NCBI GenBank assembly: GCA_963707505.1 | Contig: CAVPQB010000006.1 | Coordinates: 640,001-704,000, forward strand | Source: an uncultured Gemmatimonadales bacterium | GTDB taxonomy: Bacteria > Gemmatimonadota > Gemmatimonadetes > Gemmatimonadales > Gemmatimonadaceae | Direction of reading: 5' to 3' | Length of the DNA: 64,000 nt | Shown here: one piece after another, positions 23,478 to 29,783 of the stretch | Layout: every line of letters begins with the position of its first letter | Numbering within the stretch: position 1 is the first letter of the stretch | Notes under the pieces: model-generated | What the model was told of the DNA's origin: nothing | The model's input: only the letters and a program-made list of their open reading frames with translations | Databases searched by the model: none | Made by a program: the position numbers and the translations under genes

Positions 23478-23494
23478 TGTAACGCTACGTTACA
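23478..23494. promoter_or_regulatory. Palindrome, candidate upstream activator sequence
   Basis: TGTAACG-CTA-CGTTACA (TGT-N11-ACA), about 65-80 nt upstream of a -24/-12 element. Confidence 0.55.
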
Positions 23495-23558
23495 ACCATT
23501 TCGTTTCGCAAACCGGCGGGTCACACTGTAAGTCGTTGGTATCCAACGATTTAACTTG

Positions 23559-23574
23559 TGGCCCGCCGGTTGCT
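23559..23574 (+). promoter_or_regulatory. Sigma54 (-24/-12) promoter
   Basis: TGGCCCGCCGGTTGCT = GG-N10-GC with TTGCT, 47 nt before ATG 23621; preceded by IHF-like TAAGTCGTTGGTATCCAACGATTTA. Confidence 0.72.
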
Positions 23575-23620
23575 TTAGGGCTGTGTGCAAGAACCTTCGC
23601 ACATTACTGGAGCCAAGCAC

Positions 23621-25392: not shown

Positions 25393-25474
25393 GCCTTTGC
25401 AGGGGCGTCAGTTGGTTACAGCTTGATGCGAGGTTGGCCGACACTCTGAGGGTGTCACCAACCTCGCATCCGCA

Positions 25475-26563
25475 TTGAGCACATATACCGAACCTGTTTC
25501 GCTTGGGATTGGGTGGGCGCCTCCGCGTCTGCCCGACCCCGCCGCGCGTCAGACCCCCCGCCAGGAGCCGGTAATCTGGACGGAAGGGATGGTCGTGGGG
25601 CAGAGTGATTCCCTACAGGCTGCGGTGGCTCTCGCGACCAAAGTAGGCACCAGCCGCGCAGCGACCGTGCTGGTCTGCGGTGAGACAGGGACAGGAAAGG
25701 AGCTCTTCGCGCGCGGAATCCACGCGTGCTCCACCCACTCCAGCGATCCCTTCGTTGCAATAAACTGCGCGGCGATTCCAGAATCCCTTCTGGAGAGCGA
25801 GCTCTTTGGCCACGAGCGCGGCGCGTTCACGGACGCACGCGCGATGAAGCGAGGTCTGCTCGAAGTCGCGGGACGCGGCACGATCTTCCTGGACGAGATT
25901 GGCGAGCTGCCGCTCAAGCTGCAGCCGAAATTGCTCCGAATACTGGAGCAGCGCACGTTCAGGCGCGTTGGTGGCTCCGTCGAGCTGCCCATCGCGGCGC
26001 GTGTCATTGCAGGCACCAACGTGTCGCTCTCGGATGCGGTAGATAGCGGGGCGTTTCGCGAGGATCTGTTCTATCGCCTGAGCGTCGTACGTCTGGATCT
26101 TCCGCCGTTGCGCGAACGGTCTGGTGACGTCGAGCTGCTCGCGCGTCACTTTCTGCGCGATCTTGCGCGTGAAAGTGACGGTGTCCCGGCGACACTATCC
26201 GTCGATGCGCTCACTGCTCTCTGCACGCATACATGGCCCGGTAACGTGCGCGAGCTGAAGAACGTCATCGAGCGCGCCGTGATCGTCGCCGGTGGAAAGA
26301 CGATACAGCGACAGCACCTGCTGTTCCAGCGCAGACGCAGCGTTCAGGCAGACGTCGATGTGGAATGCGGAACAGTGATCCGCATACCTCCCGGCGGCAA
26401 GACGCTCGACGAGATCGAGTCAGAGGCAATTCAGGCCACGCTCGCCCTTACACGCGGCAACCTCAGCGCCACGGCCCGCATCCTCGGAATATCGCGTCCG
26501 ACGCTCGGCAGAAAGCTGCGCTCCGCAGGCCTCGAGCGACGCATGGTAGTCTCGAGCCAGTGA
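25475..26563 (+). CDS. Sigma54-dependent activator (AAA+ and Fis HTH) lacking a regulatory domain; start could be ATG 25589
   Basis: [48 protein letters not shown]-terminal [12 protein letters not shown]. Confidence 0.92.
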
Positions 26564-28188
26564 CGACAGCGACAATGACGCAGATTGGCGGAGTCTCGCG
26601 TCCTGATTCTCCTGTTTCGTTCGACGACGTGGTCGGCGAGGCGCGGAGTCTCGAGCGGAATGGCAGATGGACGGAGGCACGCTCCTGCTATGAGCGTCTA
26701 TTGGGTGACGATACACTCACCGCGGCGGCGCGCTCATCGGTATTACGCTGGATCGGCCGCACGCACGCCGAGGAAGGGAATCCGGACACAGCGTTCTCCG
26801 TGCTCGAGCGGGCCGTTGCGGCCGCGCAGGAATCAGGTGAGGTGGGCGTGGAAGCGCACGCGCTCAACGGGCTCGCGGTAATCGAGCAGACGCTGGGCAA
26901 CCTCGACCGTTCCGAGGAGTTGTATGTACGCGCGCGAAGCCGTGCCGCCGAAGCCGACGATGAGCTGCTGGTGGCGATACTGGACCAGAATCTCGCAACC
27001 GTGGCGAACATTCGCGGTAATCTGGAGCTCGCGCTCGAGTCGTATGGATCGAGCCGGAAGCGCTTCCATGCGCTGGGCCGTTCATCATACGAAGCACACG
27101 TGCTCAATAATGTCGGGATGGTGCTGACAGATCTTGGACGGTGGGAAGACGCCGAAGCGGCGTATTGCTCCGCGTGCGAAGCGTGTGCAAGCAGCGACGA
27201 CAGAGAGCTGCTGCGCAGGATCGAGGTGAATCAGGCCGAGCTCTGGATTGCACGTAACGATCTGCCCAAGGCGCGCGAGCGGTGCGAGCGGTTGCTGAAC
27301 GATGCACAGCGTGAAAAAAATGTATCAGCGCCATGGCTCGGCGAGGTTTACAAGCACTACGGCGTCGTGTGCCGGGAACAGCGTCAGCTTGATCGTGCTG
27401 AAGGTTGGTTTGCACAGGCAGCAAGGATCGCGGATAACTCGCATGACCTGCTCCTTGCCGCTGAAACGGCGCGCGAGCAGGCCGAGCTTTACTGGATTCA
27501 GGCGCGAAACAGCGACACGCTGCAGGCGCTGAACGCAGCACACGGCTGGTTTTCACAACTGCGCGCGGAGCGTGACCTCGATGCGATCGCACGGCGCAAC
27601 GGACGTCTGGAAGAGCGTTTTCTCGAAGTAGTGCGGAAGTGGGGCGAATCGATCGAAAGCAAGGACTGTTACACGCAAGGGCACTGCGTACGTGTCGCAG
27701 ACGTAGCGTGCATGCTCGCCGAGCGTATGGGGTTCGACTCGAAAACATTGTTCTGGTTCCGCATTGGCGCTCTGCTGCACGACGTTGGCAAGTTGATAGT
27801 TCCGCAGGAAGTGCTCAACAAGCCAGGCAAGCTCGATGACGATGAGTGGCGCATCATGAAGCGTCACCCCGAAGCCGGTGTCGAGCTGCTGGCCGACATC
27901 GAATTTCCGTGGGATGTGAGGCCCATGGTGCGCAACCATCACGAGCGCTGGGACGGCGCAGGATATCCGGATGAGCTGGCGGGTGAAGCGATACCGCTTT
28001 CGGCGCGCATTCTCTGCATCGCCGATGTGTACGACGCTCTCACGACGAATCGCTCGTACCGTAAGGGGTTCGATCATGAACGGGCTGTGGCCGTAATGAC
28101 CGAGAACAATGCGAACGGTCACTTCGATCCGGCGATATTCGATCTCTTCCTCGAATGGGCTGCGACGCACAACACACAGGTGGGATGA
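26560..28188 (+). CDS. TPR plus HD-GYP cyclic-dinucleotide phosphodiesterase
   Basis: N-terminal TPRs; [44 protein letters not shown] overlap with activator stop (alternative ATG 26575). Confidence 0.92.
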
Positions 28189-29783
28189 CAATGTCGTTCA
28201 TACGTCGCGAAGATGTTGGCGCATCGCTGCGATCGGTCGCGCTTGCAGGATTGATCATCATCGCTGTCGCTGCGTGCGCGGGAGAGGCGAGGGTCGGGAA
28301 GGCGAGTGGTGCAGGAGGGACACTCGTTGTCGCCACAGCCGGCGACGCCGACAACCTCTTTCCACCGCTTACACTGACCAGTCAGGGGCGCCAGGTGGTG
28401 GATCAGATATTCGATTATCTGGCGGACATCGGCCCCGACTTGAATACGATTGGCGATGGAGGCTTCACGCCCAGGCTGGCCGATTCCTGGCGCTGGGCTC
28501 CGGATTCGTCGTGGATAGCGTTCCACATCAATCCGCGTGCACGCTGGCACGACGGGCAGCCGGTTCGCGCCGGCGACGTCCGCTTCACATTCAAATTGCT
28601 GACGGACTCGACGCTTGCATCGCCGATTGCAGCGACATTGCGCGGGATCGATTCGGTAAGTGTGCGCGATTCACTTACTGCGGTCGTGTGGTACTCGAGA
28701 CGGACGCCGGAGCAGTTCTTCAATTTCGTGTACAACGTCGCGATACTGCCTGAGCATCTTCTGCACGATGTTCCGGTGAAGTCACTTGCATCGTCACAGT
28801 TTGCGCGGCATCCAGTGGGCAGTGGCCGGTTCAGGTTTGGCAGATGGGACGGCGGGTCGCGCATCGAGATCGTGACTGACAGTAATAACTATCGCGGACG
28901 CGCACGGCTCGATCGCGTTGTGTGGTTGGTGTCGCCGGACATGCAGGCAGCGACGACGCGGTTGCTGGCGGGCGAGGCGGACTTCCTCGAGGTCGTGCGT
29001 GGTCCCGCAGTGGATCAGGTTGTCGCATCGCCGCGCGTACGACTGTTGACGTCGCCGAGTCTCGATTACGGCTTTCTGGGGTTCAACGTTCGGCGTGCGC
29101 CGTTCAATGACAGGGAAGTACGGCGTGCGTTGAGCATGGCCGTGGATCGGTCGGCGATGGCCCGGAACGTGTTCGACACGCTGGCGCTCCCGGGGCTCGG
29201 CCCCGTGACGCGCGCGTTACCGGTCAGCAGGAACGTTGTTGCACTTTCGTATGATTCCGCGGCAGCGGTGAAGATACTTGCCGCGCACGGTCCGATCTCC
29301 TTCCGGTTGCTCGTTCCCACGTCGAGCGCCGTGCGCATGAAGTACGCAACGCTGCTTCAGGAGCAGTACCGTCGCTTCGGAGTGAACGTGACCATCGAGC
29401 CGCTCGAGGTCAACGCATTCGTTCGGCGACTCACAAGAAGCGACTTCGATGCGGTGCTCAATGCATGGCATTCCGACCCCAGTCCTGCCGCCGTTGTTCA
29501 GGCATGGGGGACGGCCGGCGCGCCGCCCGAGGGTGCGAATTTTGTCGGGTACACGAGTCAGCGCTTCGACGCGCTGGTGGATAGCGGCGCACGGTCATTC
29601 GATCCGGCGCGTGCGCGTGACTTTTATGCGCGGGCCTATGAGGAGATCGATGGCGACGCTCCGGCGGTGTGGCTGTACGACGCCCGGAACGCGAGCGGGG
29701 TGAGCCGTCGGGTGCACGTAGCTGGCACGAGGGCGGACGCCTGGTGGTCCGATCTTCCAGACTGGACAGTCGGCAAGCGCTGA
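28185..29783 (+). CDS. Family 5 (peptide/nickel) ABC substrate-binding lipoprotein
   Basis: Lipobox VAAC, PRLADSW, ARWHDGQPVRAGDVRFTF, PVGSGRF, VRRALSMAVDR; ATGA overlap with the HD-GYP stop. Confidence 0.9.
   Translation: MTMSFIRREDVGASLRSVALAGLIIIAVAACAGEARVGKASGAGGTLVVATAGDADNLFPPLTLTSQGRQVVDQIFDYLADIGPDLNTIGDGGFTPRLADSWRWAPDSSWIAFHINPRARWHDGQPVRAGDVRFTFKLLTDSTLASPIAATLRGIDSVSVRDSLTAVVWYSRRTPEQFFNFVYNVAILPEHLLHDVPVKSLASSQFARHPVGSGRFRFGRWDGGSRIEIVTDSNNYRGRARLDRVVWLVSPDMQAATTRLLAGEADFLEVVRGPAVDQVVASPRVRLLTSPSLDYGFLGFNVRRAPFNDREVRRALSMAVDRSAMARNVFDTLALPGLGPVTRALPVSRNVVALSYDSAAAVKILAAHGPISFRLLVPTSSAVRMKYATLLQEQYRRFGVNVTIEPLEVNAFVRRLTRSDFDAVLNAWHSDPSPAAVVQAWGTAGAPPEGANFVGYTSQRFDALVDSGARSFDPARARDFYARAYEEIDGDAPAVWLYDARNASGVSRRVHVAGTRADAWWSDLPDWTVGKR

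Follow-up and report, generated by a model that had tools for sequence, protein, structure and literature searches.

A lipoprotein–TPR cassette of Gemmatimonadota as a likely, undescribed peptide signaling system

We analyzed a 64,000-nt stretch of DNA from an uncultured Gemmatimonadales bacterium (CAVPQB010000006.1, positions 640,001 to 704,000; hereafter the window, to which all coordinates refer), in which five co-oriented genes encode a lipoprotein, a tetratricopeptide repeat (TPR) protein, a sigma54 activator without sensor domain, a TPR-HD-GYP fusion and a family 5 solute-binding protein (Table 1). The lipoprotein and its TPR neighbors likely form an undescribed peptide signaling system. 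In the reading that we favor, with a probability of about 55%, the last β-strand of the lipoprotein is cut off, imported through the oligopeptide permease Opp and read by the TPR proteins, which tune cyclic di-GMP (c-di-GMP), with a sigma54-dependent feedback on the operon. This reading is grounded in the genes, the conserved promoter elements, a His-Phe-Ser (HFS) motif in the lipoprotein, a phylum-wide pairing of the lipoprotein with TPR proteins and a residue pattern in the receptors; cleavage, release of the strand and peptide binding we infer.

Conservation of the lipoprotein–TPR pair across Gemmatimonadota

The cassette has gaps of 8 and 82 nt followed by GTGA and ATGA overlaps, and every gene, gap and overlap given in a preliminary description of this DNA was confirmed exactly. 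Pfam assigned no family to the lipoprotein and, in gene order, TPR to the second product, Sigma54_activat, its lid and HTH_8 only to the third, TPR and HD_5 to the fourth and SBP_bac_5 to the fifth. None of the five products has a kinase or receiver domain by Pfam, in agreement with the earlier view of an activator built of AAA+ and helix-turn-helix (HTH) domains only, in a cassette devoid of kinases and response regulators.

The lipoprotein family comprises 3,485 clusters at 50% identity and occurs in at least 133 of 301 genomes of the phylum, a lower bound as ten candidates per genome were scored. Within the genus it is present in 13 of 21 genomes, eleven of which keep the five-gene order, whereas in one the contig breaks off early and another is without the TPR and binding-protein genes. 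Because the flanks are conserved there as well, this order alone could reflect inheritance, and we therefore sampled loci from other genera. The resulting 80 loci were taken from the 150 best-listed of 238 matches, from the top of the ranking downward and before their neighborhoods were known, leaving out some short contigs and extra copies; the partner profiles were built from the sampled loci themselves, which aids sensitivity and does not set position. As the sampled genomes are kin and not independent, the neighborhood figures are counts rather than tests.

A TPR protein was encoded within 5 kb of the lipoprotein in 76 of the 80 loci and a TPR-HD-GYP protein in 66. The gene directly downstream belonged to one of the cassette partners in 66 loci as well (TPR 22, TPR-HD-GYP 43, activator 1), and the pairing was present in all 32 sampled genera, spanning five families. 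As a background, two further open reading frames reach the same TPR score elsewhere in the 3.66-Mb genome of the organism itself, corresponding to ~0.7% per 10-kb window. Metagenomes showed the same adjacency in 47 of 49 informative loci outside the genus, with 19 more being too short. In the reverse direction, using the TPR part of the TPR-HD-GYP protein as query, 24 of 29 TPR loci, sampled from 44 matches outside the own genome, were linked to the lipoprotein, which lay within 1.5 kb in 20 and within the cassette in four more; one of the other loci had a weak match and four had none.

The remaining genes are found less regularly. A sigma54 activator lies within 5 kb in 12 of the 80 loci and a binding protein in 22 (28 within 8 kb, ten of them with permease genes beside it, which may simply be a housekeeping transporter), and activator, TPR-HD-GYP and binding protein are jointly near the lipoprotein in only seven. 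The conserved core across Gemmatimonadota is the lipoprotein followed by a TPR or TPR-HD-GYP gene, with activator and binding protein being optional. The preliminary description had taken the genes for a functional module rather than chance neighbors, which these counts bear out, and had proposed the five-gene order as the conserved unit, which does not extend to the phylum, although the order itself recurs in 11 of the 13 same-genus genomes. Its label of a self-contained operon goes too far: the cassette contains no permease, and its five-gene form is one version of the two-gene core.

Some loci carry tandem copies of the whole lipoprotein–receptor pair, every copy having a tail of its own (L051, L055, L167, L174, L180), and the cassettes are rearranged in family f2. 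Up to five tandem lipoproteins stand in front of TPR receptors (L221, 2813-6035; L181, 5134-8832). Among 65 loci with a title, Gemmatimonadota is named in all except four, three of them from Fibrella/Fibrivirga and one titled only 'bacterium'. The Fibrella and Fibrivirga loci (L175, L176, L178) encode longer ZU5-HFS proteins with a long C-terminal part and without a TPR neighbor, representing a cargo-bearing form of the domain. Two unpublished genomes (G007, G017) contribute two of the 13 genus genomes, two of the 12 promoter regions of relatives and single rows in alignments and trees; no conclusion rests on them.

A predicted self-cleavage site at the end of the lipoprotein

The lipoprotein of 237 residues has an N-terminal lipobox, bears no cargo and ends eight residues after the HFS motif. 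In its AlphaFold model, confidence is low over the N-terminal part and high in a domain that begins at about residue 81, in which H228-F229-S230 occupies the turn between the last two strands (217-228 and 231-236). The ZU5 family was detected on distant relatives (2 of 85 matches) and the matching Atlas cluster carries PF00791 (ZU5) on 55% of its members with a score of 0.97. Foldseek returned five matches to the model at E<=0.001, all of them ankyrin ZU5 domains, and a wider fold search yielded ankyrin-B ZU5 (Z 11.7, rmsd 2.4, 115 aligned), UNC5b (8.6), BAI3 GAIN (7.9) and CARD8 (6.4), the overall ranking being ankyrin ZU5, UNC5b and ZO-1, then GAIN domains (Z 6-8), CARD8, NLRP1 and Nup98. 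The domain is predicted to be a ZU5/GAIN β-sandwich with F229-S230 in a β-turn.

The three motif residues are half of the only six invariant columns in a 146-row alignment with a mean identity of 23%, whose rows were selected by a profile that itself contains the motif; the other three are the lipobox Cys and two core residues. HFS occurs in 147 of the 148 top library matches, the remaining one being a fragment. Several GAIN and FIIND chains align with the model only as far as its residue 229, for GAIN up to what we take to be the cut sites. The NLRP1 alignment ends with this residue on chain residue 1212. F1212A and S1213A are described as non-cleaving NLRP1 mutants in the consulted part of PMC7483925.

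Among 168 distinct lipoproteins from the loci, the tail after the motif measures 7-8 residues in 118, based on a tail pattern that required S/T and an aromatic, so these two positions are no independent result. For 57 close homologues, residues 228-236 are 97% conserved, compared to 80% for residues 84-216 and 68% for the signal-peptide residues 1-22; the signal peptide, being less conserved than the tail, was set aside as a candidate signal. No longer or fused lipoprotein forms were found among 8000 scored candidates, which is weak evidence. Since the protein lacks cargo and its tail is so short, the released strand would be the sole piece able to leave. A peptide cut from the lipoprotein had been put forward before as a possible ligand; we regard it as the likely one, and the predicted HFS self-cleavage site now provides a concrete source for it.

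Several variants were observed. A Gly replaces the catalytic His in two lipoproteins whose genes are flanked by those of a TPR protein and of an activator bearing an N-terminal domain (L033, 4786-5460; L072, 4761-5360), possibly representing non-cleaving decoys. Two tails appear internally duplicated, with two peptide-like units in a row (L074, 9722-10381; L224, 7401-8162). One genome contains, besides the full cassette, an orphan second copy of the lipoprotein gene (L030, 5277-6044), which has a sigma54-like promoter motif but no TPR nearby.

A residue ladder in the TPR receptors

The model of the stand-alone TPR protein comprises eight helix pairs and a capping helix, with the repeats starting near residue 12-20 and no signal peptide. 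Both cassette TPRs are cytoplasmic by sequence and mutually 26-28% identical over part of their length. Sequence matches were to LGN/Pins, and the fold search returned APPBP2 (Z 30.2), MalT domain III (30.1), TONSOKU, Rap (24.5), LGN, NprR (22.6) and AimR (22.4).

We examined the 104 receptors encoded directly behind a lipoprotein, after dropping 10 long-branch rows of 114. At the same helix position of successive repeats, these carry R64 (101 receptors), N104 (104), N145 (101), N185 (100), N225 (102) and E/D305 (94), with E301 beside the ladder in 101. All four Asn are present in 95 of the 104 receptors versus 8 of 85 control TPR domains, and the combination R64, E301 and E305 in 89 versus none, the controls being gapped at positions 301 and 305 in 31-34 of their 85 rows. 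The ladder position corresponds to the Asn of the consensus TPR, and judged from their periodicity the ladder residues probably line the groove. Asn ladders of OGT grip every other backbone amide of a peptide, as stated in the part of PMC11145291 consulted, and since such a ladder holds every other amide, four Asn would fit about eight residues. A four-Asn ladder between conserved Arg and Glu residues thus suggests a groove for a short free peptide, consistent with the peptide-type TPR grooves proposed in the preliminary description.

The receptor tree groups by tail type, also among the paralogues of one genome; linkage alone would give the same grouping. Receptors of 1,180-1,610 residues, combining TPR, HD-GYP, GGDEF and a STAND-type ATPase with mostly further TPRs, also occur beside the lipoprotein (L038, 11683-16458; L040, L043, L046, L141).

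Output and import

The HD-GYP motifs (HD, HHExxDGxGYP and the flanking metal/substrate motifs) are intact in the fusion protein and present in 104-112 of 112 distinct homologues, in line with the HD-GYP domain described earlier. The best solved relative is a 3'3'-cGAMP phosphodiesterase, and c-di-GMP as the substrate is therefore only predicted.

The binding protein matches SBP_bac_5 with an E-value of 3.3e-65, has a hydrophobic leader with Cys31 and is closest among solved structures to AppA (E 3.7e-40). Elsewhere in the same genome, a 47% identical paralogue is encoded in an opp operon together with permease and ATPase genes. Opp ATPase genes (L232, 10831-13581), one other sigma54 activator of the own genome (G000, C3, ~767200-768200) and several genes of L032 are read in pieces, possibly due to assembly frameshifts.

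The AAA+ domain of the activator begins at residue 41 after a conserved TTG start and keeps Walker A/B, arginine finger and sensor II, based on alignment to ZraR, as well as the HTH; its GAFTDA loop and the GAFTGA form both occur among cassette activators. The sensor-less cassette activators form one group (41 rows, SH support 92, FastTree) apart from the other activators of the genome, and hence are dedicated; no NCBIfam equivalog was matched at cut-off. In family f2 the neighboring activator falls into a different clade and bears ~140 residues of N-terminal domain.

Promoter and regulatory elements

An alignment of 13 upstream regions, comprising the window and 12 same-genus loci of which three are near-identical to it, shows TGTAAC, TTACA, TGGC and TTGC to be invariant throughout, with the N5 spacer of the palindrome varying and the distance from palindrome to promoter constant at 80-81 nt. 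The IHF-like site deviates from the consensus by one mismatch on the minus strand (23529-23541) and two on the plus strand, and by at most one in 10 of the 12 relatives. By chance, TGGC-N7-TTGC would be expected ~0.003 times in the 177-nt gap, and rpoN is present in the genome. These features predict a sigma54 promoter in front of the cassette, conserved beyond chance, and the palindrome, IHF-like site and -24/-12 promoter noted before are conserved across the aligned regions. At up to one mismatch the palindrome matched once in the genome, as did a reversed control pattern; this is compatible with, though no proof of, a regulon confined to the operon.

A second candidate element precedes the activator gene, where a strong inverted repeat ends 4 nt before the TTG start, at which no ribosome-binding site is clearly recognizable. 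The core of the dyad is conserved in 12 aligned sequences and has three genome matches versus one for the control; the repeat may serve as an operator or as a brake on activator expression. A conserved RNA structure was not supported, as the six pairs show zero compensatory changes.

Table 1 Features of the cassette, with positions in the window.
Feature	Position	Strand	Description and basis
Palindrome TGTAAC-N5-GTTACA	23478..23494		Predicted to be the upstream activating site for the sigma54 activator of the cassette; conserved arms, variable spacer
IHF-like sites	23529..23553		Two, inverted, between palindrome and promoter; 1 and 2 mismatches
sigma54 -24/-12 promoter TGGC-N7-TTGC	23559..23573	+	Predicted; invariant boxes, rpoN present
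Lipoprotein	23621..24334	+	Cys23, low-confidence linker, stand-alone ZU5/GAIN-fold domain at ~residues 84-237, H228-F229-S230
Octapeptide SGYILIST, coding stretch	24308..24331	+	Predicted released last β-strand; follows the predicted F|S cut
TPR protein	24343..25392	+	Cytoplasmic, eight repeats of ~40 residues; predicted peptide receptor; model pLDDT 97
Inverted repeat	25425..25470	+	Conserved dyad core 25440-25456, before the activator start; operator or hairpin; folding z -4.3
sigma54 enhancer-binding protein	25475 (TTG)..26563	+	Sensor-less; AAA+ and Fis-type HTH, GAFTDA loop; Pfam
TPR-HD-GYP fusion	26560..28188	+	Predicted peptide-controlled cyclic-dinucleotide phosphodiesterase; most constant lipoprotein partner
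Family 5 solute-binding lipoprotein	28185..29783	+	Cys31, without permease beside; SBP_bac_5

Genes and features flanking the cassette

A tolB-like propeller gene (21660-23444) upstream and a secreted M1 aminopeptidase gene (29957-31912) downstream are conserved beside the cassette in the genus only and were rejected as members, although in this lineage the M1 peptidase could still trim or destroy the peptide. Further downstream, a trio of an AraC-type HTH, a degenerate TPR and another AraC-type HTH gene (32580-35657, minus strand) adjoins the cassette in no more than two genomes, the closest relatives whose flanks are long enough. A perfect 8-bp hairpin (29793-29811) without a T run behind it follows the binding-protein gene. 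GC and GC3 match the flanks and the window holds no tRNA, ruling against a recent transfer of the cassette. The plasmid collection gave no match, and an Rfam search over the cassette gave one match only, at chance level.

Proposed mechanism

By analogy with MAIN, GAIN and FIIND domains, the lipoprotein would cut itself between Phe229 and Ser230. The strand SGYILIST would remain attached to the lipoprotein and come free only upon its unfolding, pulling or degradation, and with such a delayed release the signal would report either cell density or envelope damage. Release would be the hardest step because such strands stay bound, and a held strand could make the system a sensor of force, damage or turnover rather than of plain density. 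The binding protein of the cassette would then pass the peptide to the shared Opp permease, and in the cytoplasm the peptide would line up with the Asn ladder, while Arg64 and Glu301/Glu305 would hold its two free ends, whereby binding would switch the HD-GYP domain and alter c-di-GMP. In this lineage, the sensor-less activator would drive the operon's own sigma54 promoter as a feedback, itself controlled by one TPR domain or by c-di-GMP; this step is accessory and the least supported of the mechanism.

We extend this reading only tentatively to the phylum, where the signal may be a free Stachel-like strand stored in a self-cleaved ZU5/GAIN lipoprotein, freed solely upon pulling, unfolding or degradation and read by TPR–c-di-GMP enzymes, to which a dedicated sigma54 activator would add feedback in this lineage. 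Whether this amounts to a new way of making a signal we regard as possible, at somewhat less than even odds.

A number of observations weigh against the proposed mechanism, which is predicted in all its steps. As one of the core strands of the fold, and with the same HFS strand in MAIN domains that have no known signaling role, the tail need not owe its conservation to a signal. Tails exceed eight residues in 50 of the 168 lipoproteins and are little varied for a pheromone, being mostly S-x-Y plus hydrophobic residues. Ankyrin ZU5 domains, among the top fold matches, are presumably non-cleaving. The receptor fold is closer to MalT domain III, which we take to be sugar-binding, than to Rap. Fragments of MAIN domains stay tightly bound and are freed only by SDS or heat, according to the text of the preprint by Brogan and Rudner (bioRxiv 10.64898/2026.05.12.724683). 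The receptors, moreover, are kin and the control domains gappy at the two Glu positions. An acid at receptor position 112 tracks an Arg at tail position 2 (27 of 34 versus 3 of 70, phi 0.78), yet this suggestive covariation goes back to one or two independent changes and loses significance when kinship is taken into account. A complex prediction of the TPR part of the TPR-HD-GYP protein with lipoprotein residues 208-237, i.e. 30 residues instead of the free octapeptide and run without controls, scored 0.02 with a mark of 0.32 and speaks neither for nor against binding. Finally, the binding protein is absent from most loci, four of the 29 TPR-HD-GYP loci lack a lipoprotein within 14-17 kb, and three of the 80 lipoprotein loci with full flanks lack a TPR within 5 kb.

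Alternative readings

The genes may instead cooperate with the lipoprotein as the output, namely a protein of the surface or envelope whose production is controlled by sigma54 and c-di-GMP, and with the TPRs sensing another ligand, such as outside peptides delivered by the binding protein, a small molecule or the tail of a cytoplasmic protein. The lipoprotein gene is the first behind the promoter, and outside the genus TGG-N9-TGC is found upstream of lipoprotein genes more often than expected (8 of 39 versus 1.4 expected; 14 of 100 versus 3.05). The best TPR fold matches, MalT domain III and APPBP2, which reads C-terminal degrons, are also compatible with this arrangement, and TPR pairs can control c-di-GMP enzymes by protein contact without a peptide, as reported for RcbAB in the abstract of PMC12282931. 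Such an output role, however, leaves unexplained why a cargo-free lipoprotein carries an invariant cleavage triad 7-8 residues from its end and why lipoprotein and receptor are duplicated as pairs, and we consider it rather unlikely.

The preliminary description itself had envisaged the stand-alone TPR protein as a dedicated anti-activator, comparable to PspA acting on PspF, with one ligand, possibly the signal peptide of the lipoprotein, controlling both outputs of an obligate five-gene unit. Enterococcal pheromones are a parallel for a signal derived from a lipoprotein signal peptide. The promoter elements are conserved as this arrangement would predict, and the TPR gene directly precedes the activator gene in most activator-bearing loci, including genera g17, g30, g98 and g103. 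Activators without a regulatory domain are controlled by protein binding in trans, as stated in the part of PMC7175178 consulted. However, at least eight loci keep the sensor-less activator without the stand-alone TPR protein (L031, L048, L149, L158, L159, L161, L163, L244), one of them (L031) with the full promoter, and in many others the TPR protein occurs without the activator. To judge from this gene content, the stand-alone TPR protein is not an obligate partner of the activator, which renders a dedicated PspA/HrpV-like pair doubtful and leaves the TPR-HD-GYP protein, or control through c-di-GMP, as the constant candidate. The scarcity of activators near the lipoprotein and the lower conservation of the signal peptide relative to the tail likewise argue against the anti-activator model, as does, weakly, the finding of a sigma54 activator domain in one of 120 listed long TPR relatives, in a kinase-ATPase context. 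Altogether, we deem it improbable.

A mere co-inheritance of the genes without a shared pathway, suggested by the conserved flanking genes of the genus and the kinship of all sampled genomes, is made very improbable by the neighborhood counts, by the 8-nt gap, overlapping codons and shared promoter, and by the persistence of the pair in 32 genera and five families, rearranged and duplicated, without the flanking tolB, dsbD and peptidase genes of the genus, which are absent from 126 loci of other groups.

Relation to known systems

The proposed peptide signaling by release of the lipoprotein strand most closely resembles the RRNPP(A) systems (Rap/Phr, NprR/NprX, PlcR/PapR, PrgX, AimR), for which the part of PMC9765709 consulted describes a secreted precursor gene beside that of a cytoplasmic TPR receptor with 5-9 TPRs and a concave pocket, and a short C-terminal peptide imported by Opp. 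The cassette likewise places the gene of a predicted secreted precursor next to a cytoplasmic TPR receptor gene, whose modeled eight helix pairs align with Rap, NprR and AimR at Z 22-25. In contrast, the cassette receptors lack an N-terminal HTH (Pfam finds none) or three-helix bundle, and their output is a C-terminal HD-GYP domain, sometimes also with GGDEF and a STAND-type ATPase, or none. The RRNPP(A) precursor is a small propeptide matured by separate proteases, whereas here it is a folded lipoprotein with its own predicted cleavage site. RRNPP(A) systems belong to Bacillota and the cassette to Gemmatimonadota, a two-membrane phylum. It would thus work like RRNPP signaling, but on account of its output domain and precursor type it is not a member.

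MAIN domains, as described in the preprint text, cut between F and S of HFS with the halves staying bound, and sit in proteins averaging 158 kDa that consist of a signal peptide, cargo, the MAIN domain and an anchor at the C-terminus, with the cargo being shed; this text ties no signaling to the C-terminal piece. In common with MAIN and with GAIN domains of adhesion G-protein-coupled receptors (GPCRs), the lipoprotein has a related β-sandwich, HFS in the β-turn before the last strand and surface anchoring. Its layout is inverse, with an N-terminal lipid anchor and no cargo, and the leaving piece would be an untethered Stachel-like strand. The words 'lipoprotein', 'Gemmatimonad', 'ZU5' and 'TPR' do not occur in the preprint text; its supplementary tables of 15,000 proteins, which lie outside this text search, might list some of the lipoproteins studied here.

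ZU5 autopeptidases (PIDD, the FIIND of NLRP1/CARD8, Nup98, polymorphic-toxin ZU5) share the fold and the position of the cut, and bacterial ZU5 domains have been proposed as releasing peptidases (PMC3482391, in the part consulted). These free a folded domain or a large protein, whereas here usually 7-8 residues follow the cut. The activator resembles the Group 4 proteins PspF and HrpR/S in having AAA+ and HTH without a regulatory domain and in the arrangement of palindrome, IHF-like site and -24/-12 promoter, but differs in forming a clade of its own. The nearest TPR-pair control of c-di-GMP is RcbAB of Vibrio vulnificus, two adjacent TPR proteins of which one is fused to a c-di-GMP enzyme controlled by its TPR; RcbB is a cyclase, and the abstract names no lipoprotein, peptide or binding protein. 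A literature search, with most subscription journals outside its reach, found no description of the lipoprotein–TPR pairing, in keeping with the earlier statement that no system of this layout is described.

Implications

Testing the claim would cost little, as it specifies a peptide sequence, a cut site, receptor residues and a promoter. Gemmatimonadota are an abundant and little-studied soil phylum. If true, the cassette would represent cytoplasmic TPR peptide sensing in a two-membrane bacterium, tied straight to c-di-GMP; sensing of peptides by TPR receptors in the cytoplasm is described for Gram-positive Bacillota, and a Gemmatimonadota version would extend this range. It would also constitute a bacterial counterpart of adhesion-GPCR and NLRP1 activation that acts via a diffusible peptide, and, for a GAIN-like domain of bacteria, provide the C-terminal strand with a first signaling role, which the text of the MAIN preprint leaves as a question.

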